Source: Bacteroidota bacterium (GTDB taxonomy: Bacteria > Bacteroidota > Bacteroidia > NS11-12g > UBA955). Taken from it: a DNA stretch of 64,000 nt. Positions 26,286-55,295 of the stretch are shown here, one piece after another. Below the pieces are notes generated by a model, which saw only the letters and a program-made list of their open reading frames with translations, made no database searches and was not told where the DNA came from. The stretch lies in contig JAURFW010000002.1 of NCBI GenBank assembly GCA_030834125.1, positions 289 to 64,288 of the forward strand. The letters are read 5' to 3'. Position 1 is the first letter of the stretch. The number at the start of each line of letters is the position of its first letter. Position numbers and translations under genes: made by a program.

Positions 26286-27365
26286 ATGCAGAAAAGTAGA
26301 AATGATTTTTTAAATGAGTTAGCTTCTAAAAAAATCAAATATAATTTAGGTGCAGGAGTACCTCCACTTGATCTATATCCAAACCTAAATTTGGAAAAAT
26401 ATTTTGCTGGATTTAATATCATATCAAACCAGGACTTAATTGGCTATCATCATACAACTGGATTAATTCAAAAGGCTGCTTCTATTTTTTTAGAGGTTAA
26501 TGAAGGGTTAACTGTTGATTCTGATAATATCGTGATTTCTAATGGAGTCCAAGAAGCAATAACATTAACTATTTCTTTGTTTAGAAACAGTACTTTAGCT
26601 TGCTTAGATCCTTCATATCCAGGTTTTGAAGATGCGGCTGCAACATTTGGATGTAAGGTAAAAAAATTAAAAAATGTCAATTGGATCAAACAAATAGAAA
26701 AATTACCTGAAGGTAGCCTTTTTTATTTATCGTCAGATTTTTCAAATCCAGAAGGGTATTCGATTTCAATTGAAGACAGAAATAAGTTAGTTGAGATAGC
26801 TGAAAAAAATAAATTCTTCATTTTTGACGACGCTACCTATAGGCCTTTTAATTTAGATGTTTCATTTCCTTCGCTATTGTCACTTAATAGTGATTATGTT
26901 ATTCATGCTGTTTCATTTTCTAAATTTTTAGCTCCAGGACTACGTACAGCGTTTATTTATATACCACAAAGTTTAAAATCAGGGTTTGTTCGGTCCAAGT
27001 CTAATATTAGTTTAAATAATTCTGGTATTACTCAGTTTATCATAAAGAGATGGTTAGAAGAGAACAACTATAGTCTGAAAAAACAGTTAAATGCTATCAA
27101 GCAAAGATTAATTGCTAATAGAGAAATTACCAGAAAATTTAATATTTCGTATAATGGTGGTTTCTTTTGTACAATTGCCCTTGATAAAGATGCAGATTAC
27201 ACATTTTGTGAAAAATTATTAGAAAACGAAAAAATCGCGGTAATTCCAATGGAATTGTTTACTCAAGAAAAGAGATATAAAAATCAACTAAGGCTTTGTA
27301 TTGCTAATATCGATGCTGAAAAATTAGATTTGGTTTTAAATAAAATAATCAAATTCATAGCATAA
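26286..27365 (+). CDS. PLP-dependent aminotransferase, class I/II fold. First gene of the NRPS cluster and a candidate aryl-glycine transaminase.
   Basis: 359 aa. The PLP-lysine region 'SFSKFLAPGLRTAF' fits the S-x-S-K...G-x-R signature. 'DPSYPGFEDAA' also matches. Confidence 0.75.
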   Translation: MQKSRNDFLNELASKKIKYNLGAGVPPLDLYPNLNLEKYFAGFNIISNQDLIGYHHTTGLIQKAASIFLEVNEGLTVDSDNIVISNGVQEAITLTISLFRNSTLACLDPSYPGFEDAAATFGCKVKKLKNVNWIKQIEKLPEGSLFYLSSDFSNPEGYSISIEDRNKLVEIAEKNKFFIFDDATYRPFNLDVSFPSLLSLNSDYVIHAVSFSKFLAPGLRTAFIYIPQSLKSGFVRSKSNISLNNSGITQFIIKRWLEENNYSLKKQLNAIKQRLIANREITRKFNISYNGGFFCTIALDKDADYTFCEKLLENEKIAVIPMELFTQEKRYKNQLRLCIANIDAEKLDLVLNKIIKFIA

Positions 27366-27372
27366 TTTTATA

Positions 27373-28437
27373 ATGAAGATCAACGGAGTATTATTTGTAG
27401 AAATTTATGTAGGTATGGCTAAAATGGTTGCTTGGTGGCACCAAATGGCACTTGGTTTTACCTTGAAGGGTATAAGGGAGAGTAAAGGAAAGTATGGGGA
27501 CGAAATAACTTATTGGTTGCAGAGTGGAGATGCAAATATATTAATCACTTCTGCATTAGACCCTGCAGCTCATGATGTAATTTCCTTTGTTGACAGACAT
27601 GGCAATTCAATTAAAAGATTTGGTATTGAAGTTGATTCAATTAATAGTACTTATGACTTTCTAAAAAAAAGTTCTGCAATTTTAACTTCGGGAATCGTAG
27701 AGGAAGAAGTAGGCGATGAATACAGTGCTCGCATAAACATAAAGCTGTTTGACGATAATGAAATAAGTTTTGTGGAACGTAAAAATTGTGTAGCGCCGTT
27801 TGCAGGATTTAATAATATTGAACATTCTTTCAGTCAGAATTTTATCAAGAATATTGACCATCTTGCTTCTGTAGTTAGAATAAATGAGGCAGATTTTTGG
27901 AATCAATACCTCAGTAATATATTAAATCTTCAATTGGTTCAGACGATAGGAGAAGAATTTTTTGCCAATCTCCTTTCTGGAATGAAGATGTTTGTATTAA
28001 ATTCATCTATTGGAAAATTTAGTAAAGTAATTGTAGAGCCGCTCCCTGAAAAAGAAAAAAAATCTCAGGTAGATGTTTTTTTAAATAGCCATTTTGGAAA
28101 TGGAATTCAGCATCTTGCGTTTGAAGTTGATGATCTGATTCAGACGGTTGAATTACTTAAATCTAAAGGAGTTATTTTTACTAAAGTTCCTGAAAAATAT
28201 TATATTGATCTCGAAAAAGAGGCTCCTGAACTCCCCATAGAAATGCTACGAAAAGCAAATATCCTGTGTGAAAAGGATGAAGATAAAATTCTTCTACAAG
28301 TTTTTACAGAACCTATTGGAGATCGGCCTACGCTCTTTTATGAATTTATTCAACGTGTAAATAGTTATAAAGGCTTTGGGGCAACCAATGTTAAACAGTT
28401 ATTTAAAGCTCTCGAGAATCATTTAAATAATGACTGA
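27373..28437 (+). CDS. 4-hydroxyphenylpyruvate dioxygenase-like enzyme of the VOC superfamily, i.e. HPPD or hydroxymandelate-synthase type.
   Basis: 354 aa. Two VOC modules ('GVLFVEIYVG...', 'IDHLASVV', 'GIQHLAFEVDD'). The C-terminal 'QVFTEPIGDRPTLFYEFIQR' is diagnostic of the HPPD/HmaS family. Confidence 0.7.
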   Translation: MKINGVLFVEIYVGMAKMVAWWHQMALGFTLKGIRESKGKYGDEITYWLQSGDANILITSALDPAAHDVISFVDRHGNSIKRFGIEVDSINSTYDFLKKSSAILTSGIVEEEVGDEYSARINIKLFDDNEISFVERKNCVAPFAGFNNIEHSFSQNFIKNIDHLASVVRINEADFWNQYLSNILNLQLVQTIGEEFFANLLSGMKMFVLNSSIGKFSKVIVEPLPEKEKKSQVDVFLNSHFGNGIQHLAFEVDDLIQTVELLKSKGVIFTKVPEKYYIDLEKEAPELPIEMLRKANILCEKDEDKILLQVFTEPIGDRPTLFYEFIQRVNSYKGFGATNVKQLFKALENHLNND

Positions 28438-29617
28438 AATTAAAGATCATTCTGGAATTAAGGGCAATCCGTTAGATAGATGTTCTCCAATTGAAGTAGG
28501 AGAGCTGATCAGTTTTTTAAAGAAAAATCCTAATTCAAAATATAGAATAGGTGCTGGATTGAGTGGAGTGAGTGGAGCTGCGGTTCCTTTGCACGATGAA
28601 TTATATATTGATTTTTCCAATTATAAAAAATTAAACTGGATCGATAAAAAATCTGGATTATTCAGCGCTTTTTCAGGTAATACCATGTTTGAAATAAAAA
28701 ACTTTGTGGAAAAAGAGGGTTGGGATTTCCCAATTATGCCTGGAAGTTTTGAGAAAGCAACTATTGGTGGTATGATTGCTTGTAATGGAGGGGGGCTGTT
28801 CTCTTTGAGGTATGGTAAAATTGGAAACTTTGTTCGGGAAATTGATATAGTAACTTGTTCAGGAGATAAAATGAAATTTGGTTCACAATGCAGTAAAATA
28901 TCGGAAGGACCGGATTTCTCAAAACTACTCATCGGATCTGAAGGGAGTCTCGGATTTTTAGATAAGATTACTTTACAATGTACACGATTACCCGCAATTG
29001 ATCTTTATCGAATTTCTTCAACTTCTTTTTCCAAACTTTCTGCATCTGTATGTGATTTTTTAAAGTATAATCCCATTTATTTGGAAATGGCTGAGCAAGA
29101 TGCATTGCGCTTCAGTTCAGGGGCAAATGAATCAGTTATTTGGCTTGGTTTGCAAAAAGGGATGCGGTTTTCACCTGGAAATTCAAAATTTAAAATTGAA
29201 AATATACCTCCACAAAATATAAATGAGCGTTTGGATATTGGCCGAAATTTACAGAAATATAAAAAGTTTATTGATTTAGATATAAGTTTTCCGGTTGCCC
29301 ACAGTTCAGAAATTCTTACAGAGCTTAAATTTCTTTTAAATAATTATAATGTTGAATCAATCTTTTTTGGCCACGCTGGTGATGGTAACTGGCATATTCA
29401 TATATTCTATGATAATCTCAATCCTTTTAATGAACTAATGAGTTCCGAATTCGATTTAATTCTTTTAAAATACGGAGGGCATATTAGTGGAGAACACGGC
29501 ATTGGAAGAATTCATAAAAATAGATTCATCAAATTTAAGGATGAAGGATATCAAAATCTGTATGGTGTATTTAAAAAATATCTCGATCCGAAAAATCAAT
29601 TACCCTCAATTTTCTGA
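28430..29617 (+). CDS. FAD-linked oxidase (FAD_binding_4 / GlcD-type 2-hydroxy-acid oxidase or dehydrogenase).
   Basis: 395 aa. 'YRIGAGLSGVSGAAVP' and 'KATIGGMIACNGGG' match the FAD-binding PCMH-type domain. Overlaps the upstream gene by 8 nt. Confidence 0.65.
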   Translation: MTEIKDHSGIKGNPLDRCSPIEVGELISFLKKNPNSKYRIGAGLSGVSGAAVPLHDELYIDFSNYKKLNWIDKKSGLFSAFSGNTMFEIKNFVEKEGWDFPIMPGSFEKATIGGMIACNGGGLFSLRYGKIGNFVREIDIVTCSGDKMKFGSQCSKISEGPDFSKLLIGSEGSLGFLDKITLQCTRLPAIDLYRISSTSFSKLSASVCDFLKYNPIYLEMAEQDALRFSSGANESVIWLGLQKGMRFSPGNSKFKIENIPPQNINERLDIGRNLQKYKKFIDLDISFPVAHSSEILTELKFLLNNYNVESIFFGHAGDGNWHIHIFYDNLNPFNELMSSEFDLILLKYGGHISGEHGIGRIHKNRFIKFKDEGYQNLYGVFKKYLDPKNQLPSIF

Positions 29618-30231
29618 TGAATAATTTTATCCTTTTAGAGTTTGATCATATATCAAGATTTGATTATTCAGAATTGTCTAAATTCAGTGACGATTGGTGT
29701 GAAAGTATAAAAGAACCTAAACGAAGAATGGAAAGCCAGTTGGCGAGATTATTATTAAATAAAAGTTGTATTGAACTTTTAAATAAAAATCTGAGCCAGT
29801 GTGCATTCAAAAAAGATAAATTGGGTAAGCCGTTTCTTGAGAATTATCCGAAATACCATATTTCAATTTCTCATTGCAATGGATATGTTTGGACTGGAAT
29901 TTCAAACTCACCAATTGGAATTGATTTTGAAAAGATTGAATTAGAATGTATAGAGGATTTACGAATAGCATTTGATAATGAAGACTGGCAGAATATTTCC
30001 CATAATCCGGAATTGATTTTTGAATATTTTTCTCTCAAAGAATCATATTTAAAAATGTTGGGTATTGGGTTTACAAAAGAGCCATCGGAGATAAGAAATT
30101 ATACACTAAAAGATAACATTTATTCAGAACTATTTGATACCTCAAATCAGAAATTTATTTTTACTTTGATAATAAAAAATTTTAAACCTAGCCATTATAT
30201 TAAATCCAACCAAATATTCTCAAAATTATAA
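29617..30231 (+). CDS. Sfp-type 4'-phosphopantetheinyl transferase.
   Basis: 204 aa. 'LGKPFL', 'ISISHCNGYV', 'GIDFEKIE' and 'FSLKESYLKMLGIGF' match PPTase motifs P1a/P2/P3. Confidence 0.8.
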   Translation: MNNFILLEFDHISRFDYSELSKFSDDWCESIKEPKRRMESQLARLLLNKSCIELLNKNLSQCAFKKDKLGKPFLENYPKYHISISHCNGYVWTGISNSPIGIDFEKIELECIEDLRIAFDNEDWQNISHNPELIFEYFSLKESYLKMLGIGFTKEPSEIRNYTLKDNIYSELFDTSNQKFIFTLIIKNFKPSHYIKSNQIFSKL

Positions 30232-30232
30232 A

Positions 30233-30997
30233 ATGAACAATAATAACCTTAAGGATTATTTAGAGAGAGGATTTGTATTTTTTGATAATTATACCGTTAC
30301 CATAACGGAAGATCTTGAAAACAAAATTACGGGATCAGCACATTCGGTTAAGTTTTATGAATCTGATGGTGAAACTATCAGATCCTTTTATGGGTTTCAT
30401 AGGGATACCCATATCAAGGAATGGATTCAGCTACAAAAGCCGATACAAGAAATTTGTAAAAAAATATATCCAAATGAAGATATTTATATTCATCAGTCAA
30501 AAGTAAATATCAAAAACACCATAGAAAGTTCAGTTTGGCCATTTCATCGTGATTTCCCATTTTGGAATGTTTTTGATGGTATTGCTGATAATAGGCTGTT
30601 GAATGTAGTAATATTTATGGATGATGTAAATGAAGATAATGGCGCATTAAGTTTTATACCAGGGAGCCAAAAGTACTTTCTTGAAAGGGAAAAAGAATTT
30701 GCAAAACAGGGCTACAGTTTGGAAGGTTCGGCTTCGAATAATTTAAATTTTGATTTTAATCAATATGAAGTTGAAGCATTCAAACTTAAATTTGGAAATG
30801 AACTAATAACTGGTCCTAAAGGGTCGATTGTAATATTTAACCCAAATTTAGTGCACGGATCATCTTTTTCGACTCAAGATTTTAGCAGAAAATTAATGTT
30901 ACTCACTATTAATGTTTGTACCAATAAGCCTAAAATTCCAGCTATCCGCCCCGATTATTTATGTTCAACAGACTTTTCCCCGATAAAGTGGAATTAA
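30233..30997 (+). CDS. PhyH-family Fe(II)/2-oxoglutarate-dependent dioxygenase, a candidate amino-acid hydroxylase.
   Basis: 254 aa. 'VWPFHRDF' (H-x-D) and a distal 'NPNLVHGSS' His. Its stop is 6 nt before the NRPS-1 ATG. Confidence 0.65.
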   Translation: MNNNNLKDYLERGFVFFDNYTVTITEDLENKITGSAHSVKFYESDGETIRSFYGFHRDTHIKEWIQLQKPIQEICKKIYPNEDIYIHQSKVNIKNTIESSVWPFHRDFPFWNVFDGIADNRLLNVVIFMDDVNEDNGALSFIPGSQKYFLEREKEFAKQGYSLEGSASNNLNFDFNQYEVEAFKLKFGNELITGPKGSIVIFNPNLVHGSSFSTQDFSRKLMLLTINVCTNKPKIPAIRPDYLCSTDFSPIKWN

Positions 30998-31002
30998 AAG
31001 AA

Positions 31003-34000
31003 ATGAATCATAAAGAATATTGGTTAGCCTATTTGGAAATGATTCCAAAATTTTCATATGAATCCTTTTACACTGAAGAGCAAATAACAGAAAATATAGT
31101 GCTACCTGAAAGTTTGTCTAGATTATCTAAAATGAATAGTCACAACGCACAACTTTTACTAGCCGTAAGTATTTCAAAGTTGTTTAGTTTAAAAAATATT
31201 TTTGAAAACGTTTCTATAGAATTAGTTAACCAATATATTCCACTTCCAGATTGCAACGAACAAATTCTGAGTGATGCAGCCAAGAATGTTTTGACTAATT
31301 TTCGGCAACATTTAAATAATTTACCGGCAATTGAATTTCAGCCTTCATTAATAAACTTCTATCAACACGAGGCTAACAGGAAATCATTAATTAATTTCAA
31401 AATTGATGAATCCTTGAGCAAGTTGCAAGTGTTGATGCCGTCCAATTTTAAAACATTCGTAAATCTACTTTTCAAAGAAACATTCGATTTACTCGAAACC
31501 ATAGGAACCAATAAAGGAATTTCATTTTCTGATACACTCTTAAAGGAGTTTAATGGGATAAGCAGAAATAAGCTGCCAGAAATAGTTGAAAAATGCTGGC
31601 CAGAGATTCATGATTTCCCTTTAAAGCCCGAATTAAGTTACCTTGAAAATGGCGGAGATTCTATACAGGCAATTCGGTTACTTTCAAGGTTGCAGCGTGA
31701 TGGTTATTTTTCTGATCTCAGTAGCCTTATTAATTCAAAAAGTATTTTGGATTGGAAAATTGAATATCGAGGCGTTAGTAATTTATTACCAGATTCTAAT
31801 TTACGGACTTATCCACTTTCTGCAACTCAGAAATTAATTTGGGAAGATTGGTCTTCCTTAAACCAATTACATATTTACCATGAGCAGTTTCTTTTCAAAT
31901 TAGACAAATGTCCAACTTATGAAGTTATAAAATCTGCTTATGAATATATTTGGCAAAAATATCCGCAATTAAGGGTCAATATAGATTATGAAGAAAATGG
32001 CTTTATACAAATTGTCCAGGAGTCTAAAGCCGATTTTAGGATTATAAAAGGGAAGGGGATAGATGAGATTTTACAAGCTGATTTATCTGAACCTTTTGGA
32101 AAAATCCTGATGCGCTGTACTTTCATTGATTTAGATAAAGATAAATACATACTTTGGTCTCATCATCATGTTCTTCTTGATGGTTGGAGTGTAGGTAAAC
32201 TAATTGCTGAATTTATTGAAATTATTGAACGGGGAATACCAAAATTGACTATTTCACCAAACTATCAGCAGATTTTGCTAGGTAAAGAGAATTTAATAGC
32301 TAATGAAAATGAAACTGCATATTGGGAGAGTTTTTTCAATAATAGATCAGCTCTGGCACTTCCAAAAAAATCAGCAGAAAAGGGTGAATATGAAACGTTT
32401 ATTGCAAAATTAGATAATATTGAAAATTTCCGAAGTGCTTCGGAAAAGGCAGCGGTTAGTCTTCAGAGCTATCTGCTGACACATTTTTTTCTGACAGTTT
32501 TTAGTATTAATGGAAAAAATAATACTTATTTACATAGTATATCTTCCGGAAGAAGTTTAATTCCGGAATACGCAGAAGAAGCTGTTGGCCTATTTATTAG
32601 AAACATAATTCCAGGTTTTGAAATCAAAGAAGACGATACTATACTGAGTCTTCTCCAAAATTTTCACAAAGATTTTATCAAGACGGTTGAAATGGAATTT
32701 ACTTCACCGGAATTAATAAATTCTTATCAAGAAGAGCGTCCCGATGTGCTTTTTGTTTTTGAAAACTACCCGTATCAAACTATTAAAGGCGATAAAATAA
32801 GCGGTGAATTAATTGATAATCATGAATTAACAGGCTATCCATTTAGTTTTCTAATTATGCCTCAGGATGATTGTCTAAATATAAAAATCATTTATGATAG
32901 TGGAAGATTTAGTTCAGAGTTTATTTCTACTTTCTACCATAAGTTTAGCTCACTGCTATTACATTTTAAAGCCAATCTGAACGATAAAGTTTATCAATTG
33001 GAAGATAGCCTCAATAAACTATCCATAATCAATGATAAGTTTCCATTTTGGTATGATGAGATTATTCGTAAAACGTCAAAATCAAAAAATCAAATTAGCA
33101 GTTCTAGGAGCGAAGAAAAAATTGCTTTCAATAAGATAGAAAATCTTGCTGCCAGTTTCAGTAATTATTTTAAAGATTTGCAAAAGGGCAATCGAATTGC
33201 TGTTTTTGGCGAAAAGAATGAAAAATTACCAGCAATAGCATATTCTATTATGCGAAATGGTTTTGTATATCTGCCCATTAATATTTCATGGCCTTTAGAC
33301 AGAATTAGTAAAACACTTAAACTTGCTGAATGCAGTCATATAATTATCACGGATGATTCTCCTTCATTGGAATTGCCTGATTACTTGACCATTCATAAAG
33401 ATGTTTTTAGTATAGAATCTGATATTTCAATAAATTATCGACCTGAATTGGATGATGAAGCATATTTGCTTTTTACATCAGGATCAAGTGGCATGCCAAA
33501 GGGGGTAAGCCTTAGCCATAAAAATCTATCCTCATTTCTAGATGCTTGTACTGAATATTGTGACCCAAACAATTATGAATTAATTTTTAGTTTTACTAAT
33601 ATCGGTTTTGACCTCTCAATTTTTGAAAATTTATATGGATTGTATTCCGATAAGTCAATTCATGTCATTCATAAACCAATTCATTTGTGGGAAGAATTAC
33701 AAAAGTTTAATGGAATATTGCTAAATACAGTACCTTCTGTAATTATTAATCTGAAAAGGGAAGAAATAAAAAATATTTCTGTTTTACATACAGCAGGAGA
33801 ACCTTTTAGAAATTCTGCCTGGGAACTTTTAAAAGAAGGAAATCCAAACATAAAAATTTTCAATTGGTATGGACCTACTGAAACAACTACTTATTCCACG
33901 TGTGTAGATTTAAGTGATGCATACTCAGCTTCTATCGGTAAAGCTCTTAAACACGAACTTATATTTATAACCGATGCATTGGGACTTAAACAAATGGATG

Positions 34001-43685: not shown

Positions 43686-43692
43686 TAAAAAT

Positions 43693-46416: not shown

Positions 46417-46432
46417 TAATATTTTAATCGTC

Positions 46433-46822
46433 ATGCATGAAATACAATTACCTCAAACAAGTTTCTACTACTTAAGAAATCATCCTTTAAAAGGAATGGG
46501 TGTATATTCATTGAGAGATTTCAAGATAGGTGAAATGATTTCAAAGAACTACGTTGCAATAATTGATTGGGAAATGGATGAAAATTCATCTTTTCAACAA
46601 CACTATCCAATGTATTGGACAGAGGAATTTGCTTGTATTGCATTTGGGATAATAAACCTTGTTAATCACAGCTCAAAGCCAAATTGTAGAATTAAAATAG
46701 ATTATGATTCTCAAACTATAGCTCTTTTAAGTAAAAAAGTAATTAATGCAGAAGAAGAATTAACAATTGATTATGGTGATGAACATTTTCCATTTAAATG
46801 TGGTAAAGTAAAAATTTATTAA
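46433..46822 (+). CDS. Small SET-domain protein, a putative protein/peptide lysine N-methyltransferase fold.
   Basis: 129 aa. 'GMGVYSLRDFKIGEMI' resembles the SET N-region G-x-G...I-x-x-G-E. 'LVNHSSKPNCRI' matches the NHSC-x-PN core with Cys to Ser. 'EEELTIDYGDEHF' matches the ELxxDY motif. It sits between NRPS genes 3 and 4 on the same strand. Confidence 0.6.
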   Translation: MHEIQLPQTSFYYLRNHPLKGMGVYSLRDFKIGEMISKNYVAIIDWEMDENSSFQQHYPMYWTEEFACIAFGIINLVNHSSKPNCRIKIDYDSQTIALLSKKVINAEEELTIDYGDEHFPFKCGKVKIY

Positions 46823-46895
46823 CCAAAGACCTTAGATGATAAAATATTAAACTAGTCATTCTGAATTTTTATTATAAATTATGTGAAAATACAAT

Positions 46896-49800
46896 TTGAA
46901 AAGGTCTGTTCTAATGAGAAATAATTACAATAAAGAAGATATTGCAGCAGTTTTCAAAACGCATTTTGCCGAACAGAGCCTTATCGTCATGGACATGGAT
47001 AAAGCGCAGAATTCGGAGTACATTGAAACAGCTCTAGTTAAAATTCAGGATCGCATTCTTCAGAAAAATGATATTGAAAACTGGGTTCAATCTATTCCGC
47101 GCTTTCGAGATGTATTTATTTATGAAAAACTGGAAGAGCCTGTTAGGGTAAGACTTAAAACAATCAACCCATCGATTGAAATTATTGATGCCAATAATTG
47201 GGATGATTCCAAAATCTTAGATTGGCTTGATACACAAGATTTGAATTTAAATATACAGCAAGGCCCATTATTCAAAATTTTCATTTTTAAAAGTGAAAAC
47301 TCCTCATATTTAGCTTGTTGTTATCATCATCTTCTTTTTGATGCTATTTCTATTCAATACGCCTTTGCTTCCTTATTAAAAGGGACTAATATTTCTTTTA
47401 AAGAATGGATACCTGTAAATGAAAATAATAAACAGATTAAAGTTGATGAAGTCGGATTTGAGATGCAAAATTTCGTTCCTCAACCGATAAAAGGAGTAGA
47501 CCAATTTTTATATGAAGAACTAGAACTGCCTGAATTGCATTACAAGGATTTTATGGCAAAATGGGCGGAGTTCATCTTTTTGGCCACAGGAGAAGATCAA
47601 ATTTGCATTGGTGAAGTTTTTAGCCTAAGAAATACAGAGCCTGCTGCGCAGGATGCTATTGGCTATTATGTGCAGACTTGGCCTTTAATACTAAAAAGTA
47701 ATTCTAGTATTAAAGAAGATATTGAAATTCAACGCTCAAAAATTCTAAAACATTTAGATAAGCCTGTACAGTCTTTATATCCCACTGGTCTTTTCGATCA
47801 TTGTTGGGTACTTGAACCAGAAATAAAAAGTGAATATAAAGCAATTTTTAGATCACGTCCACATTATTTACTTTCTATTGTAATTAAAGCAAATAATGAA
47901 GGTGTTTCACTTTGCTTTGTCTGGAATTTAAATAAAATTACTAAGCCAGCAGCTAAGGAAATAATAAATTCATTTAATGAATTTGTAAATAGTAAAAATG
48001 CGATAAAAAAAATAAATAAAGAGTCTTATCAACTTAAGCCTATCAATTATATTTGGACAGAAAAAATTAATTTAAATCCAGATAAAATTGCTGTTCGAGA
48101 TTCAAAAGGAAATAAATTAAGTTATAAGCAGCTTGAAGATCTTTCAGATTCCTTAGCATCTGTCTTGGATGTTAAAATACAAGAGCCTGTAGGAATAAGA
48201 ACATCTAATTCTGTTCTATTAATTGTTTCTATGTTGGCAATTTTAAAAAAGAGGGCAATATATGTACCCTTAGATCCAGAAATATCTGACGAAAGATTTA
48301 AATATATAATAAACGATGCCAATATTAACACTATTATCAGTGATTTAGAGGCAGTGCCTTTGAAAACAATGATTCATCCCATACAAAATAAAGTATCAGG
48401 GGTGCCAATGGATTTAAAGCCTGATTTAAATGATATCTGTTATCTGATTTATACTTCTGGAACTACGGGGCAGCCTAAAGGGTGTTCAGTAATGCAGAAA
48501 AATCTGAGCAACTTGTTTATTGGTACAGCATTGAAATTCGATTTTAAGAAAGACGATTCATGGATTCTTGCTCATAGCTATGGGTTTGATTTTTCAACAT
48601 GGGAAATTTGGGGAGCATTGCTTAATGGAGCTTCACTTTACATTCCTGACCGTAAAGATGTTAAGGATAGCTTTAAATTCTACAAAATATTACAACAGGA
48701 AGAAATAACTATACTTAATCAAACCCCAAAAGCCTTTGAAAATTTAATGATTGTTGGTGAATCAGAAGCACAATTAAGTAAACTACGATATCTGATTTTT
48801 GGCGGTGATAAATTAAATTTTCAAAAGATTTATAATTGGCAATTAAATAATGCTAAGGTAAAGGCAGTAAATATGTATGGTATTACAGAAACCACCGTTC
48901 ATGTTACTTTTAAGGAGGTTGAAGTTGAAGAATTTAGTAATATTGGCAATCCACTTCCTGGGTATGCACTTTCACTTAGAAATGTAAAAGGAAATATAGT
49001 ACCCGATGGTTTTATTGGAGAATTGTATGTTGAAGGAAGCGGCGTTTGCAATGGTTATTTCCAGAAAGAACAATTAACCGCAGAGAAGTTCGATTTTCAG
49101 AAAAACCCAACATATAGGAGTGGCGATTTGGGTTGGCGCATGAATAATGATTTCTATTATTTAGGAAGAAATGACCGTCAAATAAAAATAAGAGGATATA
49201 GGATTGAACTTGGTGAAATTGAATTTTTACTTCAAAAAGAATTTAAGAATCTTTTTAAAATACTTTTTATTAATAACAAGCTATTAGTTGCATTCCATAC
49301 TTGTCCTTTTGACATTGATAGATCCATGTGTATCTCGCTACTCCCAGAATATGGTATTCCTTCAAGGTTTATTAAATTAAAAGAAATTCCCCTTAATGTT
49401 AATGGAAAAACTGATGAAGAAGCTTTAAAAAATATTTTAAATGAAGTTCAAAAAGACAAATCAAATGGGACCGATGATTTGTTTTCATATTTTTCAAAAG
49501 TTTTAGGTAATAATTTAGACTTACACAGAAGTTTCATTGAAAATGGAGGTGATAGTATCAGTGCAATCAGGCTTATAAATACCCTTCGTAAGGATAATTT
49601 TAATCTTTCAATTCAAGATCTTTTTACAACCTCATCTCTTTCTCAATTAAAATTGAAAAAACTTAATGAGAATAGTATTAGAGAAAGTTGGATGAATGAT
49701 CCATTAATTGATACTTTAAATTTAGAAAATCAATTAAAAATTGATGGAGTATTTCCGCTAAGTGAGTCTCAAATTGGTATTTTATATGACAGTTTAGCTG

Positions 49801-52800
49801 GAACAGAAGATGTTTACATGGTTCAATTAACTTATGAAATTGGGTCTGATATTACCGTAAAACAGCTTCGCAAGGCATATTTAAATGTAATGCATGCTTT
49901 GCCAGCACTTCAACTTCAAATAAGAAAACACGAAGACACATTTCTTTGGGTATTACCCAAAGAACCTTTAGTAGAAATAGAACAGCTTGATTATTCCGGC
50001 AATCTAAATGATTTTCTTGCATCGGACTTTAAAAAACCATTTGATTTTTCTAAAAATTTAATGCGATTAAGTATTTTAACTAATGAGAATGGAAATAGTC
50101 AACTAATTTGGACTCATCATCATATTTTAATGGATGGATGGTCATTAGGGTTGTTTAGTAAATTATTATTTGAATCTCTAAAGGGTAATCCAATAATTAA
50201 GCAAACTTCATATTTGGATTTTTTATACAGCTTTAAAGACAAAAAATCATCCAATGAAACATATTGGAAATCTAGATTAGAGAAATGTAGTAATGATCCG
50301 TTGATACCATATCTAACTAAAGGTGAAGAATCGGATAATTATGGAGAGTTTGTATTAGAAATTAATGAAATCCCGTTATGGCGCGAACTTACCCATTCAG
50401 GACTAACTCAACATAATTTTGTTTATTCGGCTTGGCTTGCATTTTTAACAGCAGTTTTCAATAAAAATGAAATAAATATCGGAAATGTAATTTCTTTAAG
50501 AGAAGGTAATCTTGTTGAAGAGGTCGGTATGTTTATTCAAACTTTACCGTTTTATATGGCCACTGTTAAAGATGAATTATTTTCAGACTTTTCCGGTAGG
50601 GTGAAACATCAACTGCTCGAGGATATCGAACATAAGGAATTATCATATAAAACCCTTGAAGGAATAAATTTAAATTTAGACCATATTTTCGTTTTTGAAA
50701 ACTATCCAATTGATGAATCTGTATATGATAACTCATCTATCAGTATTGGGGAGTTTAAAGAAAGAACTGCCGCTAAATGGACCTTGATTTGTTATCCCAC
50801 TCAGAAAGGAATAAAAATTAGAACCTTGTTTCAAGGTGATTTTTATAATTCTGAATATGTAGGAGAGATAATGAGGAGGTTTGCAGAATTTATCCAAAAT
50901 ATTCATTGGGATTATAAAATAGGTTCTATTCCAAAATATATTACTAAGGCACCAATTCTGGAAGGTAAAAATAAACCTTTGCCGAAAATAGATAATCTAT
51001 TCGACTATTTTACCTCCAATGATGGTTTTAAAATTATCAGTATCAATGATGAGCTAACTGATGTCGATATTCACAATAAAACTAAAAGAATTGCGATAAA
51101 ACTCAGTGAACTTGGAATTGAAAATAATGAAGCTGTGGGAATCGACTTAAAATCAGTAAGTAATTTTGTTATTGCTGTATTGAGCATTTGGAAAGTTAAT
51201 GCGGTTCCTTGTTCAGTAGATTATCGTTATCCACAACAACGAAAATCATTTATTTGGGAAAATGCATCTTGCCGTTTTGTTATCTTAGAGAAAGATGGTG
51301 AAATATTTATTGAAACCAATGAATTTCCAAAAATGATGCAATCTGCAGATGCTTCGTTCATTCTTCATACCTCTGGATCAACAGGAATACCTAAAGGGGT
51401 TATTCAGACGAAAGACTGTTTGATTCATTTGGCTAATTGGACTGCAACTGAACTTGGATTAAACAAGAAGGATAGAATTTTAGCACTTTCCTCATTCGGT
51501 TTTGATGCTTCATATCACGAAATGATATTATGGCTTTCACTTGCAGGAACGCTTGTTGAAATGCCATACGAATCGAGACAGGATATTCAAGAAATTAGAA
51601 AATTTATTATTTCCAAACAAATAAGTATTGCTTGGATTCCTGCACGACTTCTAAATTCGATACTTGAAATTGAGCCCTTCTATTTCGATGAATGTCAATC
51701 TCTTAAACAAATTGTCACAACAGGAGAAGCATTGATTATTGGCGAAGCTCTAAGTAATTGGGTAAAGCGTGAAAATATCAGATTATTTAATTTTTATGGA
51801 CCTACCGAAACCCATGTGGTAACTGCGAAGGTTATAGATAAAAACAATATCTCAACAATCCCAGACATTGGCCAACCTATTAATAATGCCGCAATTGGTA
51901 TTTTCAACAGCGATGGGGAACCGGTACCAAAGGGATTTACTGGAGAATTATTCATTTCCGGTCCATACCTGGCTAATGGATATTTAAAAGACGAAGATTT
52001 AGATAGTAAAAAATTTGTTTATCGAAATAATGTAAGGTGGTATAAAAGCGGTGATATCGGTTGGTTTAATGAAAATCAAAATATTGAATATCTGGGTCGT
52101 TTAGATGATCAGATTAAAATAAGAGGTTATCGAATTGAGCCATTTGAGGTGGAATCTCTAATTCATAAAGTTGAGGGGGTAAAACAGGTCGCCATCGCGG
52201 TTGATAAAACAGAAGAAACAAAACTGATTGCTTTTTGGACAGGTAAAAAGATATCGGATATGGAATTTCGAAAAAACTGTTTGAAAATTTTACCAGAATT
52301 TATGATTCCCGAGGTTCAAATTTATCTCGATAGTTTGCCAAGAAATATTAATGGAAAAATTGATCGTAAATTACTGTTAGAAAATTATTTTTCAAATAAA
52401 GAAGCTACATCTAATAGTATACCTAATAGCTCGGGCTCTCGTTGTTGGAAAGCTATTTTGGGACATGAAAATTTTAGAAAAAATTCACAATTTCTGTCTG
52501 TAGGTGGTAATTCAATTAAAATTATGCGAATGCAAGCCTGGTTAGAAAAAAATTATGGAATATCTTGTACTGTAAAAGAGCTAATAATAAATCAAACAAT
52601 AGCCGAACTTGATGATTTGATTATTAAAAAAGATGCGGAAAGCACATTTTTATTACCGGATGCTATTCCCTTAAATAAGCTTCAAGATGATTTATTACTT
52701 GCAGAAGAAGGTAATTATATCTCTAAGGATTCTCCTTTTTTATTGTCTTTCACCTGCGACATGACGAAAAAATATGAAATCAATGAATTTGAAAGAGCAA

Positions 52801-53681
52801 TTGAATATGTTTTCGAGTGTTATCCGCATTTAACCTATGTTTTCGATAATAATCAAAAACGCAAACGGTTTGTAAAATGCGAGAACTTTAGAGAATTTAT
52901 AAAAGTCCCACTCCATAAAGATTCATTGCAATCCGCAGAGCCGTTGTTGAGAATTTTCCAGGAGGATGGTAAATTGACAGTCCAATGGCATCATATTGTA
53001 CTTGATGCGGTAGGCATTTCAATATTCATGCAAACCTTTTATTCTTTATTAGAGGGTGAAGAAACTAGAATTAAACGAAGTTATAATTCCTTTTTACAAC
53101 AACATAGTATTAAAAATATTGCAAAAACGGAAAGTTCATCAAAAGAATGTATAGTGTTCAATAAAATTATTGGACCTGATGAAAAAAAATTACTTGAAAT
53201 TCTTGGTATTGAATTAAAACTAAGTTTACATGATGTATTTTTATTGGTGTCGCATAGTCTTTTTGGTCTTGAAAGCCTTATTGCCTATACGGATAATGAA
53301 CTGCAATGCGGAATACCCGGAATGTTTACATTTTTAAATTGTAGTAGTGTAACTGAAAAAGGATGTATACTTCAAAAAAATGTAGTAAGTGATAAAAAGG
53401 TTTCAATGGTAACTAACTTTATGTATGCTCCCGAACTTCCGATTGATGTTAATATTGAATCGTCTGCTGTGAAATTATGTAAGTATCTTTATGAATTTCA
53501 AATTGAAGTATTTGAAGATAAAATTCAGTTGCAATTTATTTGTGAATTTGATAATAAATCGTCTGAGGATAAAGCAAATCAACTATTTAATAATATTGAC
53601 AAATTATTAGTTGAAAAGTCATTTCAAGCATTATTTGATCGAAGAAACAATGAGATTCATTTTGAAGATTTTGATTTTTAA
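46896..53681 (+). CDS. NRPS protein 4: C - A - T - C - A - T - C, ending in a condensation-type domain with no T or TE.
   Basis: 2261 aa. C1 'YHHLLFDAIS' (~47322). A1 'LIYTSGTTGQPKG' (~48454), 'FDFS', 'NMYGITETTVHVT', 'YRSGDLG', 'GRNDRQIKIRGYRIELGEIE', 'NVNGKTD'. T1 'ENGGDSISAIRL' (~49541). C2 'THHHILMDGWSLG' (~50112). A2 'FILHTSGSTGIPKGV' (~51367), 'FDAS', 'NFYGPTETHVVTA', 'YKSGDIG', 'GRLDDQIKIRGYRIEPFEVE', 'NINGKID'. T2 'SVGGNSIKIM' (~52491). C3 'WHHIVLDAVG' (~52989), about 400 aa to the stop. Confidence 0.9.
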   Translation: MKRSVLMRNNYNKEDIAAVFKTHFAEQSLIVMDMDKAQNSEYIETALVKIQDRILQKNDIENWVQSIPRFRDVFIYEKLEEPVRVRLKTINPSIEIIDANNWDDSKILDWLDTQDLNLNIQQGPLFKIFIFKSENSSYLACCYHHLLFDAISIQYAFASLLKGTNISFKEWIPVNENNKQIKVDEVGFEMQNFVPQPIKGVDQFLYEELELPELHYKDFMAKWAEFIFLATGEDQICIGEVFSLRNTEPAAQDAIGYYVQTWPLILKSNSSIKEDIEIQRSKILKHLDKPVQSLYPTGLFDHCWVLEPEIKSEYKAIFRSRPHYLLSIVIKANNEGVSLCFVWNLNKITKPAAKEIINSFNEFVNSKNAIKKINKESYQLKPINYIWTEKINLNPDKIAVRDSKGNKLSYKQLEDLSDSLASVLDVKIQEPVGIRTSNSVLLIVSMLAILKKRAIYVPLDPEISDERFKYIINDANINTIISDLEAVPLKTMIHPIQNKVSGVPMDLKPDLNDICYLIYTSGTTGQPKGCSVMQKNLSNLFIGTALKFDFKKDDSWILAHSYGFDFSTWEIWGALLNGASLYIPDRKDVKDSFKFYKILQQEEITILNQTPKAFENLMIVGESEAQLSKLRYLIFGGDKLNFQKIYNWQLNNAKVKAVNMYGITETTVHVTFKEVEVEEFSNIGNPLPGYALSLRNVKGNIVPDGFIGELYVEGSGVCNGYFQKEQLTAEKFDFQKNPTYRSGDLGWRMNNDFYYLGRNDRQIKIRGYRIELGEIEFLLQKEFKNLFKILFINNKLLVAFHTCPFDIDRSMCISLLPEYGIPSRFIKLKEIPLNVNGKTDEEALKNILNEVQKDKSNGTDDLFSYFSKVLGNNLDLHRSFIENGGDSISAIRLINTLRKDNFNLSIQDLFTTSSLSQLKLKKLNENSIRESWMNDPLIDTLNLENQLKIDGVFPLSESQIGILYDSLAGTEDVYMVQLTYEIGSDITVKQLRKAYLNVMHALPALQLQIRKHEDTFLWVLPKEPLVEIEQLDYSGNLNDFLASDFKKPFDFSKNLMRLSILTNENGNSQLIWTHHHILMDGWSLGLFSKLLFESLKGNPIIKQTSYLDFLYSFKDKKSSNETYWKSRLEKCSNDPLIPYLTKGEESDNYGEFVLEINEIPLWRELTHSGLTQHNFVYSAWLAFLTAVFNKNEINIGNVISLREGNLVEEVGMFIQTLPFYMATVKDELFSDFSGRVKHQLLEDIEHKELSYKTLEGINLNLDHIFVFENYPIDESVYDNSSISIGEFKERTAAKWTLICYPTQKGIKIRTLFQGDFYNSEYVGEIMRRFAEFIQNIHWDYKIGSIPKYITKAPILEGKNKPLPKIDNLFDYFTSNDGFKIISINDELTDVDIHNKTKRIAIKLSELGIENNEAVGIDLKSVSNFVIAVLSIWKVNAVPCSVDYRYPQQRKSFIWENASCRFVILEKDGEIFIETNEFPKMMQSADASFILHTSGSTGIPKGVIQTKDCLIHLANWTATELGLNKKDRILALSSFGFDASYHEMILWLSLAGTLVEMPYESRQDIQEIRKFIISKQISIAWIPARLLNSILEIEPFYFDECQSLKQIVTTGEALIIGEALSNWVKRENIRLFNFYGPTETHVVTAKVIDKNNISTIPDIGQPINNAAIGIFNSDGEPVPKGFTGELFISGPYLANGYLKDEDLDSKKFVYRNNVRWYKSGDIGWFNENQNIEYLGRLDDQIKIRGYRIEPFEVESLIHKVEGVKQVAIAVDKTEETKLIAFWTGKKISDMEFRKNCLKILPEFMIPEVQIYLDSLPRNINGKIDRKLLLENYFSNKEATSNSIPNSSGSRCWKAILGHENFRKNSQFLSVGGNSIKIMRMQAWLEKNYGISCTVKELIINQTIAELDDLIIKKDAESTFLLPDAIPLNKLQDDLLLAEEGNYISKDSPFLLSFTCDMTKKYEINEFERAIEYVFECYPHLTYVFDNNQKRKRFVKCENFREFIKVPLHKDSLQSAEPLLRIFQEDGKLTVQWHHIVLDAVGISIFMQTFYSLLEGEETRIKRSYNSFLQQHSIKNIAKTESSSKECIVFNKIIGPDEKKLLEILGIELKLSLHDVFLLVSHSLFGLESLIAYTDNELQCGIPGMFTFLNCSSVTEKGCILQKNVVSDKKVSMVTNFMYAPELPIDVNIESSAVKLCKYLYEFQIEVFEDKIQLQFICEFDNKSSEDKANQLFNNIDKLLVEKSFQALFDRRNNEIHFEDFDF

Positions 53682-54526
53682 TGAGAGATTCGTTAAAGCA
53701 TATAGTTGATAAACTTGCCGTTAAGGGTTTTAGAAAAGCGGGAGGAGATAGTTGGAATGATGCAATGAAAATAATGCATCAATTGATTACACATTATTGT
53801 TGCGAACCTACAGCTTCGGTTTGGAAGGATGACAACGGCACTATATACACAAATTTCTCACTTTTTTTTAAAGGTAAGATTCATAAGAAAATTGTTATAG
53901 GAGCGCATTACGACACATATGAAGATACTCCAGGTGCTGATGATAATGCCTCTGCAGTTGCAGTATTACTTGGATTATCGAGCAAATTGAGGGATATTGA
54001 AAATCTTCCTTATGATACTGAATTAGTTTTCTACGCTTGCGAGGAGCCACCCTTTTTCGGGACGGATGCTATGGGGAGTTTTAAGCATGCGATAGCTTGT
54101 TCTCCAGGCAATACAAATTTGATGATTTGTCTTGAAATGGTAGGTTTTTATTCTAATGAATTGGGTAGTCAGAAATATCCTTTTTCAATATTTAATTTAC
54201 TTTATGGGAAAAAGGCAAATTATCTAATGTTAGTTTCCAACTTCAAATCTAGAAGGGTTTTACGTCCTCTACGCAATGTATTTAAAGAAAGTTCTATGAT
54301 TTACAAGATCTTTATTTCTCCCTTCAAATCTTTCGGAATGGATTGGTCCGATCATAGAAATTACTGGTCAAAGAATATACCAGCAATCATGATTACAGAT
54401 ACTTCAGTATTTAGAAATTCAAATTATCATCAATTAACCGATACTCCAAATACTTTAGATTATGATAAAATGGCTGTTCTGACTCAAGATTTGTTTAAAT
54501 TAGTAAAAAATATAGAATTGAATTAA
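53681..54526 (+). CDS. M28-fold zinc metallopeptidase-like protein (aminopeptidase or glutaminyl-cyclase fold).
   Basis: 281 aa. 'IGAHYDTYEDTPGADDNASAVAVLLGLS' matches the M28 metal-ligand block H-x-D...D-D-N-A-S-G/A-V-A. 'YACEEPPFFGTDAMGS' supplies the Glu-Glu pair. Its start overlaps the NRPS-4 stop by 1 nt. Confidence 0.6.
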   Translation: MRDSLKHIVDKLAVKGFRKAGGDSWNDAMKIMHQLITHYCCEPTASVWKDDNGTIYTNFSLFFKGKIHKKIVIGAHYDTYEDTPGADDNASAVAVLLGLSSKLRDIENLPYDTELVFYACEEPPFFGTDAMGSFKHAIACSPGNTNLMICLEMVGFYSNELGSQKYPFSIFNLLYGKKANYLMLVSNFKSRRVLRPLRNVFKESSMIYKIFISPFKSFGMDWSDHRNYWSKNIPAIMITDTSVFRNSNYHQLTDTPNTLDYDKMAVLTQDLFKLVKNIELN

Positions 54527-54527
54527 C

Positions 54528-55295
54528 ATGCAAAATCACAAAAAAATTATTGGTCTTTTACCAAATGAAGATGCTTATGGTAATAATATAGCAGATACTT
54601 TTTATGGTAAAGGTGGGGGATATGATATTATTGAAAGAGAAGATGGACATTTTACATTAAACGGCGATAGTGACGCATATACGGAAGCATTTGATAATTG
54701 GTCTCAAATACAAAAATTATCAAGCAAATATGTTAATGGAAAAGTCCTAGACATAGGATGTGGTGGAGGAAAGCATTCAGTTTATTTTCAGGAACAAGGT
54801 GTTAATATTACTGGTATGGATAATTCTCCACTTGCATTGCAAATTTGTGGAGAAAGAGGCCTTGAAAATACTTTATTGTGTGATGTTCTTCGCCTAGACC
54901 ACACGGTTATTGATGAATTGGATTCAATCATTCTTTGGGGAAATAATTTTGGATTGCTTCAAAATTCAGTTGTAGCAAAAAAATTCTTCAAGAATTGCCT
55001 CAAAATGTGTAATCCTGATGCGAAAATACTGATAGAAACACTAGACCCTTATGGAAAAGCCTTCAATTTAGACGATGATAAATCATACATAGAAGAAAAT
55101 AGGCTTAATGGTCGATTAGGTGGGCAAATTCGGGTTAGAGTCAGGTATCGACATTTTGTTACCCCATGGAGAGATTATCTTTTTGTATCCAAACAAGAAT
55201 TGAATGAAATTTTAGAAGATACAGGTTGGATAGTTACTAATACTTTTGACGACAAAGAGATTGATCAATATATAGCGGTTATTGAAAGAAATTAA
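54528..55295 (+). CDS. Class I SAM-dependent methyltransferase. Last gene of the cluster string.
   Basis: 255 aa. Motif I 'VLDIGCGGGKHSVYF' and motif II 'ITGMDNSPLAL'. Confidence 0.7.
   Translation: MQNHKKIIGLLPNEDAYGNNIADTFYGKGGGYDIIEREDGHFTLNGDSDAYTEAFDNWSQIQKLSSKYVNGKVLDIGCGGGKHSVYFQEQGVNITGMDNSPLALQICGERGLENTLLCDVLRLDHTVIDELDSIILWGNNFGLLQNSVVAKKFFKNCLKMCNPDAKILIETLDPYGKAFNLDDDKSYIEENRLNGRLGGQIRVRVRYRHFVTPWRDYLFVSKQELNEILEDTGWIVTNTFDDKEIDQYIAVIERN

Follow-up and report, generated by a model that had tools for sequence, protein, structure and literature searches.

Several described systems resemble parts of the gene cluster reported here. The syringomycin synthetase SyrE ends in a condensation–carrier–thioesterase (C-T-TE) module that lacks an adenylation (A) domain, and its cluster also encodes SyrB1, SyrB2 and SyrC. 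Pedopeptins, isopedopeptins and chitinopeptins are cationic cyclic lipodepsipeptides of Bacteroidota. For capreomycin, loading in trans of an A-less carrier has been demonstrated at a C|T protein junction (CmnA/CmnI; PMC12400406), and other trans-acting A domains are on record (PMC7539972). Clusters for nonribosomal peptide synthetases (NRPSs) are a minority class in Bacteroidota and make up 8.3% of the biosynthetic gene clusters (BGCs) in 2,680 Flavobacteriaceae and Weeksellaceae genomes (PMC10734526). We analyzed a window of 64,000 nucleotides from a Bacteroidota bacterium (GenBank assembly GCA_030834125.1, contig JAURFW010000002.1, positions 289 to 64,288 of the forward strand), in which positions 26286–55295 hold a real and intact 29-kb cluster for a nonribosomal peptide. 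The kind of system is known and the family is uncharacterized.

The region is an NRPS cluster by each defining feature that we tested. We consider it probable (roughly 70%), on the basis of sequence comparison, that it encodes one functional, vertically conserved assembly line and the genes for its precursors and tailoring. Four features are distinctive: a half-condensation domain exclusive to the family, a SET-domain gene in a tailoring slot, putative, non-canonical enzymes for an aryl-glycine, and restriction to uncultured Bacteroidota.

Architecture and conservation of the cluster

The cluster is an unbroken run of 12 genes on the + strand, as listed among the open reading frames (ORFs) of the window, and all features described below lie on that strand unless stated otherwise. 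An aminotransferase, an HPPD-like dioxygenase, an FAD oxidase, a phosphopantetheinyl transferase (PPTase) and a PhyH-family enzyme precede the synthetases N1, N2 and N3; a SET gene, the synthetase N4, an M28 peptidase and a methyltransferase follow. The initial annotation, made from the sequence alone, had described this single-strand run correctly and had counted 13 genes in it; the ORF listing contains 12, and every intergenic gap is too short for another. Neighboring genes overlap by 1–8 nt or are separated by at most 16 nt, with two exceptions. The PhyH gene and N1 overlap by 37 nt; with Met15 (nt 31003) as the start of N1, which is also the first position of the ortholog profile, the two genes no longer overlap. 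N4 is preceded by 73 nt, or by 91 nt if the ATG chosen by metagenome gene callers is the real start. The earlier description of gaps of 73 nt or less and overlaps of mostly 1–8 nt holds in general, apart from these two junctions.

There are no frameshifts or internal stops across the 29 kb of the ORF listing. The GC content of the cluster is 31.7% compared with 36.4% and 34.2% in its flanks, and GC at third codon positions is 0.18–0.27 compared with 0.20–0.32. We rejected the possibility of a mobile island: the window contains no tRNA and no match to an Rfam family, the flanks contain no integrase, and no repeats bracket the cluster, in which the repeats are solely internal and lie at A-domain motifs. 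The flanks within the window are made up of unremarkable chromosomal genes and include no transporter, regulator or resistance gene. An acidic 126-aa ORF directly upstream (25805–26185, +), which has no Pfam or NCBIfam match, was placed outside the cluster because it is not found upstream of the cluster in other lineages.

To assign domains, the synthetases were cut into 23 motif-guided segments for Pfam, as a whole-protein scan gives only the best stretch per family. This recovered A, C, T and TE domains at the motif-guided segments, in the numbers that had been read from core motifs alone (6 A, 8 T, 8 C, one epimerization (E) domain and one TE). The four synthetases total 7,409 aa, close to the earlier estimate of about 7,400. 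Pfam likewise bore out the earlier calls for the aminotransferase, the HPPD-like protein, the FAD oxidase, the PPTase, PhyH, SET, M28 and methyltransferase genes. N1 (30961–35937, start probably at 31003; 1658 aa) has the architecture X-T0-C-A-T-E, where X is a domain described below and T0 is a carrier without a cognate A domain. N2 (35934–43685; 2583 aa) is C-A-T-C-A-T-C-T-TE, and N3 (43693–46416; 907 aa), the proposed initiation module, consists of a divergent C-like domain (HHCLADA), an A domain and a T domain. N4 (46896–53681) is C-A-T-C-A-T-C followed by a F(E/D)DFDF tail and is 2261 aa long from a TTG start or 2255 aa from the ATG at 46914. The A-less modules that had been noted earlier are real: T0 of N1 and the C-T-TE of N2 both lack an A domain.

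The catalytic residues of these domains are retained. All six AMP-binding domains align to GrsA-PheA and keep D235 and K517. Eight PP-binding matches were found, four of them below the Pfam cutoff, and all have a G-x-x-S motif that is conserved in orthologs. Nine C-superfamily domains have an ortholog-conserved His motif, and the Thioesterase domain has GYSMG. The T0 carrier (31627–31815) has a weak Pfam PP-binding match and an invariant GGDS serine; GGDSIQAI occurs in 24 of 29 sequences and the remainder have conservative changes. The A-less module at the end of N2 (41616–43682) matches Condensation, PP-binding (3e-10) and Thioesterase (3e-13), and its HHIVYDG motif, GANS serine and GYSMG motif are conserved in six orthologs. 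The compact C domain that ends N4 (52653–53678) has an HHIVLDA motif and a C5-like motif, IPGMFTFLN.

We classified the C-like domains with hidden Markov models (HMMs) for the E, LCL and DCL classes, which were trained on generic NRPSs and validated on hold-outs. The last domain of N1 (34696–35934; motifs PIQKWF, HHFYCDG and ETHGR) scores 127 bits with the E model compared with 77 for LCL and 7 for DCL, and it alone among the C-like domains has a match, albeit weak, to TIGR01720. The first C domain of N2 is of the DCL class (147 vs 109 bits), so that a C-terminal E domain in N1 is paired with a DCL domain at the start of N2. The second C domain of N4 and the C domain of N1 have DCL-like or ambiguous scores. 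The C-like domain of N3 has a conserved HHxxxDA motif and scores <20 bits on the LCL and DCL models; the starter class is not among these models.

The cluster belongs to a family that is found across many lineages. N3 has ~38 orthologs at 35–69% identity, after which the matches drop sharply to 23%, and N1 has ~28 full-length orthologs at 36–72% identity. The proteins of the window's cluster themselves recur unchanged on a few metagenome contigs. The N1 and N3 orthologs come only from metagenomes and metagenome-assembled genomes (MAGs), which places the product beyond culture-based discovery. The best-matching NRPSs of named organisms (Kordia, cyanobacteria, Bacillus FenD and others) are 22–27% identical. 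When 185,579 species-representative genomes were scanned with N3, the sole match was a weak one in Emticicia sp. C21 (NZ_QVMT01000012.1:160037-180210), with 43% identity over ~60 residues of the A domain; the carrier lineage thus seems absent from, or unrecognized in, that collection. As judged from these identities, the cluster represents a distinct, deeply divergent NRPS family of uncultured aquatic Bacteroidota. It is therefore not strain-specific, as a comparison with relatives might have revealed, and instead recurs in roughly 20–40 lineages. The initial annotation knew of no characterized cluster that matched, and this stands: our sequence and literature searches found no characterized cluster with this architecture (MIBiG was not queried). 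Literature searches on Bacteroidetes with hydroxyphenylglycine (Hpg), SET with NRPS, hydroxymandelate synthase with Flavobacter*, and BGC surveys of Bacteroidota MAGs returned nothing specific.

In all contexts, the shared core comprises the aminotransferase, the HPPD-like dioxygenase, the FAD oxidase, the PPTase, (PhyH), N1–N4, the M28 peptidase and the methyltransferase, arranged in blocks that are permuted among lineages and flanked by different genes. The carrier serines, HHxxxD motifs, E motifs and GYSMG of the TE are kept in orthologs down to 36–45% identity, and the six A-domain codes are near-invariant among 28 N1, 38 N3, 4 N2 and 3 N4 orthologs. Because these motifs and codes hardly vary in orthologs that are only 36–70% identical, the assembly line appears to be functional and to make one conserved scaffold. 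A sister sub-family (P0119 at L018:10001-16660, and P0112–P0138) has a 2160–2250-aa version of N1 with the architecture X-T0-C-(~270-aa insert)-A-(~340-aa insert)-T-E, in which the A-domain code is DFTKIGEVGK (Asn-like). Its cluster is otherwise equivalent, with an amidase and a second PhyH in addition. We considered P0112–P0138 as N4 orthologs and rejected this, as they are N1-type variants.

Proposed biosynthetic order, split module and peptide

We infer that the proteins act in the order N3, N4, N1, N2, which differs from the gene order in the window. Four lines of evidence lead to this order. The genes are collinear as N3-N4-M28-...-cassette-N1-N2 in two independent lineages (L012, and L006 together with L018); N3 is the first cluster gene in L006 and L007, and N3/N4 as well as N1/N2 overlap by 4 nt in other lineages, including the collinear ones. 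The E domain that ends N1 meets a DCL domain in N2. The C-termini of N3 (46369–46413) and N1 (35884–35934) share acidic helices of the DDILSILN type (DD(I/L)..I..LN), and N4 and N2 both start with KEDI..V. Finally, the F(E/D)DFDF sequence at the C-terminus of N4 (53661–53678) is invariant in five lineages. The tails of N1 and N3, the heads of N4 and N2 and the tail of N4 are probably docking (COM-like) elements.

With eight C, eight T and six A domains, the line would have eight modules, two of which are A-less: the one formed by the last C domain of N4 and T0 of N1, and the C-T-TE of N2. N4 closes with a C domain and N1 opens with an A-less carrier, as in a split module. In the proposed mechanism, the terminal C domain of N4 would condense the chain onto T0 at the start of N1, forming module 4. 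As is the case for CmnI, A domains from elsewhere in the system would load both A-less carriers in trans. By analogy, we would guess that the most economical loaders are the A domains just upstream (the second A domains of N4 and of N2), which would make residues 3 and 4 identical and residues 7 and 8 both ornithine.

The A-less carrier of N1 is preceded by the X domain (31003–31626), a half-condensation domain that consists of the C-terminal lobe only and has no HHxxxD motif. No Pfam or NCBIfam model matches N1 residues 15–222. AlphaFold2 predicts the fold with a mean predicted local distance difference test score (pLDDT) of 93.4 from a 33-sequence alignment, and the top Foldseek matches are all NRPS C, cyclization (Cy) or E domains, of which roughly one half is aligned (query- and target-normalized TM-scores, TMq ~0.5 and TMt ~0.25). 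In hhalign comparisons, X covers positions 176–385 of C domains, that is, the C-terminal lobe from the "YW" motif on. HMMER detected X in just 22 of 1.84e9 representative proteins, where it always begins at residue 1 of N1-type proteins or fragments; the ortholog profile likewise places it only at the N-terminus of N1-type proteins. By its predicted fold and its distribution, X is a half-condensation domain exclusive to this family that stands before an A-less carrier. It may serve as a docking or recruitment module for the FDDFDF tail of N4, for the trans-acting A domain, or for both. We also considered that N4 and X together supply one split C domain, with the N-lobe from N4 and the C-lobe from X, and rejected this. 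The N-lobe of the last 345 residues of N4 is aligned at 97% probability by hhalign, the tail itself aligns in register with the C-lobe, the C5-like motif included, and a low-confidence structural model of this region matches whole C domains over ~430 columns. A compact natural split A-less module with a folded recruitment domain could be of use in NRPS engineering.

Stachelhaus codes were derived by alignment to GrsA-PheA. For the GrsA anchor sequence, the alignment reproduced the canonical DAWTIAAICK. The A domain of N3 and the second A domain of N2 share the code DVGEIGSIDK, read as ornithine, and the first A domain of N4 (DFWNIGMVHK) was read as threonine. The second A domain of N4 (DAHAVTFVVK) has no assignment. 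The code of the N1 A domain (DLFNHAWTYK) agrees at 8 of 10 positions with the Cys code DLFNNALTYK, and the first A domain of N2 (DIAHMGFVLK) has an Hpg-like pattern, D-I-x-H-x-G.

Taken in the order above, modules 1–3 would incorporate ornithine, threonine and a residue with an unassigned code; a divergent N-terminal C domain in N3 may N-acylate residue 1. Residue 5 would be specified by the Cys-like code and epimerized to D, residue 6 would be aryl-glycine-like and residue 7 ornithine, and the A-less module 8 would release the chain, probably by cyclization. The predicted peptide is thus probably (acyl?)-Orn-Thr-X3-X4-D-(Cys-like)-(aryl-glycine)-Orn-X8, released by the TE, and the product is probably a cationic (lipo)octapeptide in which ring closure through Thr2 is possible. 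The conservation of the codes across deep divergence suggests that the molecule is important to its hosts, and an ornithine-rich aryl-glycine peptide would be a candidate antibiotic or signaling compound from plankton-associated bacteria. Outside the cluster, 5–7 kb downstream of it, the window encodes an Orn/Arg/Lys decarboxylase-fold protein (61526–62923, −) and a sodium:solute symporter (60056–61549, +); a link of these two to ornithine supply or export is possible.

Putative precursor supply and tailoring

Three genes at the start of the cluster form a putative cassette for an aryl-glycine. The aminotransferase (26286–27365) is a class I/II pyridoxal-phosphate enzyme of MocR/HpgT type (Pfam Aminotran_1_2, 9e-29), with MocR-type aminotransferase domains as its best NCBIfam matches, and it heads the cassette in four other contexts (L011, L012, L013 and L018). 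The dioxygenase (27373–28437), a non-heme iron protein of the Pfam Glyoxalase/HPPD fold that we propose to be hydroxymandelate-synthase-like, scores 218 bits on TIGR01263 (4HPPD), for which the cutoff is 277. The FAD oxidase (28430–29617) is of the GlcD/D-2-hydroxyacid type (Pfam FAD_binding_4 and FAD-oxidase_C), scores 145 bits on the glcD model TIGR00387, far under the cutoff, and lies between the dioxygenase and the PPTase in every lineage context.

The active site of the dioxygenase is informative. Residues P243, N245 and F364 of HPPD (1T47 numbering; human P239, N241 and F364) correspond to V219, V221 and V340, and Val/Val/Val is found at these determinants in all 4 dioxygenase orthologs (63–76% identity). 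In HPPD, the N241S substitution uncouples homogentisate formation, P214T (equivalent to human P239T) leads to oxepinone, F337I of the Streptomyces avermitilis enzyme leads to hydroxymandelate, and F364 stacks on the substrate ring (PMC13260116). From the P214=P239 offset given in that paper, we infer that F337 corresponds to F364. A true HPPD was considered on the grounds of overall similarity and rejected on these active-site residues; judged from them, the dioxygenase is unlikely to be a canonical, homogentisate-forming HPPD.

In the proposed pathway, the dioxygenase would carry out an HmaS-like conversion to mandelate, the FAD oxidase would take the place of Hmo and oxidize mandelate to benzoylformate, and the aminotransferase would convert the aryl-glyoxylate to the aryl-glycine. 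As an analogue of the HmaS/Hmo/HpgT route, the cassette would supply Hpg or phenylglycine. The earlier description of an Hpg-like cassette stands for the three-step logic, and the Val/Val/Val active site favors HmaS-like chemistry; the description does not stand for the oxidase, which is GlcD-type rather than Hmo, or for the overall affinity of the dioxygenase, which is nearer HPPD. No FMN_dh protein (the Hmo family) is encoded in the cluster, and a functional analogue of Hmo is possible. By its sequence features, the cassette would work like an Hpg cassette, although not all of its parts belong to that family. Since the dioxygenase is nearer HPPD than HmaS, independent recruitment is suggested, and this would be a possible second evolutionary route to aryl-glycines.

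The SET gene (46433–46822) encodes a minimal methyltransferase of 129 aa (Pfam SET, 8e-14, 52 bits) whose best match in the Protein Data Bank (PDB) is vSET of the virus PBCV-1 (8e-9). It has the GxGV, NHS and ELTIDYG motifs of the SET fold, with cofactor-binding and catalytic motifs both intact and conserved in 7 homologs, and starts 16 nt past N3 on the same strand. The only SET homologs detected form five homolog clusters, are 55–96% identical, and all lie in the N3|N4 slot of this family wherever the context is readable. This slot varies in content. It holds a family 2 glycosyltransferase (GT2), a SET gene and a B12-binding radical S-adenosylmethionine (SAM) enzyme in L014 (9125-11986) and L015 (6388-11196), the latter with a DDE transposase as well; a short-chain dehydrogenase/reductase (SDR), an amine oxidase and a WbsX glycosyltransferase in L016 (12708-15670); and a SET gene with a 331-aa PhyH protein in L017 (12684-14120). 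It is empty in L006 and L007. By comparison of these contexts, the N3|N4 junction is a diversifying tailoring slot, a diversification hot spot within one cluster family. The SET gene had been described as interrupting the NRPS genes; it does lie between N3 and N4, but its homologs recur in that variable slot elsewhere. We rejected a chance, lineage-specific insertion, as the homologs share the N3|N4 slot in other lineages. Because every detectable homolog is in this slot, SET is not a stray insert and, on this distribution, is a dedicated accessory of the cluster. Its most plausible role would be to methylate ornithine side-chain amines. In our literature search, no SET enzyme turned up for bacterial secondary metabolism.

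The remaining accessory genes are of familiar kinds. The cluster has its own PPTase, as had been claimed: an Sfp-type 4'-phosphopantetheinyl transferase (29617–30231; Pfam ACPS and AASDHPPT_N) that is weakly AusB-like. The PhyH protein (30233–30997; Pfam PhyH, 3e-19) is an iron/2-oxoglutarate (Fe/2OG) hydroxylase of the GriE/EctD type, with PDB matches to 7E01/7DZZ, the GriE leucine hydroxylase 5NCH and EctD. We considered a SyrB2-like halogenase, which would have HxA/G, and rejected it since the Asp of the HxD triad is present (HRD in PFHRDFPFW); PhyH is probably a hydroxylase of a free amino acid. The M28 peptidase (53681–54526; Pfam Peptidase_M28, 9e-20) is a cytoplasmic di-zinc metallopeptidase with no signal peptide and a complete HxD/D/EE/E/H ligand set, and it follows N4 with translational coupling in every lineage (L001, L006, L007, L012, L016, L017 and L018). 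It may trim the peptide or deacylate N-acyl-ornithine to provide free ornithine, an idea based on the succinyl-ornithine arginine pathway of Bacteroides. The last gene (54528–55295) encodes a class I SAM methyltransferase (Pfam Methyltransf_23/25/11) that is found at varying positions in five contexts (L007, L009, L012, L017 and L018). The SET protein, this methyltransferase and the M28 peptidase would tailor the peptide or supply its precursors.

We tentatively propose that the cluster contains two new NRPS devices jointly: a SET enzyme that would methylate the ornithines of the peptide, and a half-condensation domain that would dock or recruit at a split module by binding the FDDFDF tail or a trans-acting A domain. 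The joint proposal is the more doubtful part of our interpretation. If true, SET would be the first of its kind to be placed in bacterial secondary metabolism and, together with a convergent aryl-glycine pathway built from an HPPD-derived synthase and a GlcD-type oxidase, the product would be a new peptide scaffold of abundant, as yet uncultured Bacteroidota of aquatic habitats. The SET gene offers a testable case of a SET enzyme that acts beyond protein methylation.

Elsewhere in the window, a 605-aa protein (19579–21396, −) has a Peptidase_S74 domain, an intramolecular chaperone of endosialidases and tail fibers that is usual in phage tail fibers. The adjoining gene (17273–19570, −) encodes a protein of 765 aa that contains multiple PKD domains and, as fits Bacteroidota, a CHU_C signal for type IX secretion. 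Proteins of 692, 147 and 848 aa (14428–16506, −; 57060–57503, +; 57513–60059, +) match no Pfam family at E ≤ 1e-4.

Alternative explanations and comparison with known systems

Several points weigh against the single assembly line and the product proposed for it. Both the protein order and the origin of the residues carried by T0 and T8 are predictions. DAHAVTFVVK and DLFNHAWTYK have no exact match to any code, and DIAHMGFVLK is identical at just 5 of 10 positions to the Hpg codes, D(I/A)xHLGLLCK, with the rest conservative. The C domain of N3 is not classifiable as a starter C, and the cluster contains no acyl-activating, acyl-ligase or acyl carrier protein gene. Nor does it contain a transporter, regulator or resistance gene. 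The AlphaFold2 model of the terminal domain of N4 is of low confidence (pLDDT 58, from 3 sequences). The dioxygenase is overall nearer HPPD than HmaS and keeps Phe at HPPD F336. GlcD-type oxidases mostly use D-2-hydroxy acids, and the known HmaS enzymes give the S-enantiomer.

We considered four competing explanations. Several domains fall below Pfam or NCBIfam cutoffs and the GC content of the cluster is below that of its flanks, as might be expected if the A-less modules, the half-condensation domain and the weak C and T domains were degenerate remnants of a non-functional NRPS. A decaying relic is nevertheless very hard to reconcile with 29 kb free of frameshifts and internal stops, with carrier serines, C and E His motifs, TE GxSxG and codes that persist across orthologs of 36–100% identity, and with an X domain that is predicted to fold at a pLDDT of 93; we consider it extremely improbable. 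A second explanation would divide the system into two assembly lines that each make their own peptide: N3-N4 would produce a tripeptide, which the terminal C domain would transfer to a soluble amine or alcohol, and N1-N2 a tetra- or pentapeptide, with release by the TE. In the window the TE falls midway along the gene order, the N3-N4(-M28-methyltransferase-PhyH) and cassette-N1-N2 blocks are permuted among lineages with other genes between them, and chain release by a terminal C domain has precedent, as in the fungal CT and enacyloxin structures that the fold search returned. However, both blocks co-occur on every contig that is long enough, N1 opens with a carrier that lacks an A domain and an upstream C domain and so needs a donor, and the C domain at the end of N4 requires an acceptor. 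The parity of eight C and eight T domains suits a single line, and X is confined to N1 and the FDDFDF tail to N4, as for a dedicated junction. We therefore prefer the single line running from N3 to N2 and regard two separate lines as decidedly unlikely.

The other two explanations concern the accessory genes. The cassette could serve some purpose other than aryl-glycine formation, with an HPPD paralog that makes homogentisate or another product and an oxidase and aminotransferase that act on a different amino or keto acid. This would fit the higher score against the S. avermitilis HPPD 1T47, which is the best PDB match (135 bits), than against the Amycolatopsis orientalis HmaS 2R5V (89 bits), as well as the retained F336, an oxidase outside the FMN-dependent Hmo family and the partial match of the Hpg code. 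It is nonetheless unlikely: every ortholog has Val at all three positions where mutation diverts HPPD from homogentisate, homogentisate is no substrate for a 2-hydroxy-acid oxidase and a transaminase, the logic of dioxygenase, oxidase and transaminase matches aryl-glycine formation exactly, and the cassette accompanies the NRPS strictly, in every lineage. More open to doubt than aryl-glycine supply by the cassette is the role of SET, which could simply travel with the cluster as a protein-lysine methyltransferase, with a regulatory role or with a cellular or foreign protein as its substrate. To our knowledge, every characterized SET enzyme methylates protein lysines. The best structural relative is a histone methyltransferase, the codes of the core peptide are the same in lineages with and without SET, and a DDE transposase adjoins the gene in L015. 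Against this, all detectable homologs (55–96% identical) are in the N3|N4 slot of this family, the slot elsewhere holds typical tailoring enzymes (PhyH, GT2, B12-radical SAM, amine oxidase and SDR), and the gene follows N3 by 16 nt on the same strand. A non-tailoring role is thus possible, though we think it doubtful, and tailoring of the peptide remains our preferred reading for SET.

Compared with known systems, the cluster combines familiar elements in unfamiliar ways. Like syringomycin, it closes with an A-less C-T-TE module and includes an Fe/2OG enzyme of the PhyH fold; its PhyH protein has HxD rather than the halogenase HxA/G, it has no stand-alone A-T protein and no SyrC-type shuttle, and N3 has its own C domain. 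With the pedopeptin-type peptides it shares a Bacteroidota host, a first module that opens with a C domain, predicted basic residues and a near-N-terminal Thr suited to ring closure, but none of those synthetases is among the matches, and lipidation and cyclization are only putative here. As in the HmaS/Hmo/HpgT systems of glycopeptides, nocardicin and the calcium-dependent antibiotic (CDA), an HPPD-fold dioxygenase, a 2-hydroxy-acid oxidase and a class I/II transaminase are encoded beside an NRPS, and the dioxygenase has non-HPPD residues at product-determining positions. The cassette differs in its GlcD-type FAD oxidase, which replaces the FMN-dependent Hmo, in a dioxygenase nearer HPPD than the actinomycete HmaS, and in an A-domain code that matches in part. 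The SET protein is like vSET and bacterial SET proteins in being a single 129-aa SET domain with GxG, NHS and ELxxDY motifs; the known enzymes act on protein lysines, whereas this protein and its close homologs sit in an NRPS tailoring slot. Finally, as in capreomycin and viomycin biosynthesis (CmnA|CmnI and VioA|VioI), a C domain at the end of one protein is followed by an A-less carrier at the start of the next, which in those pathways is loaded in trans. The carrier is preceded by an extension, which in CmnI is required for contact with the A domain (PMC12400406), and the fold search with X places the CmnI structure among its top matches. Sequence identity to these systems is negligible, the peptide is a different one and the cluster has no MbtH-like gene. 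The extension of CmnI is ~20 disordered residues, whereas the corresponding element here is a folded 210-aa half-condensation domain.

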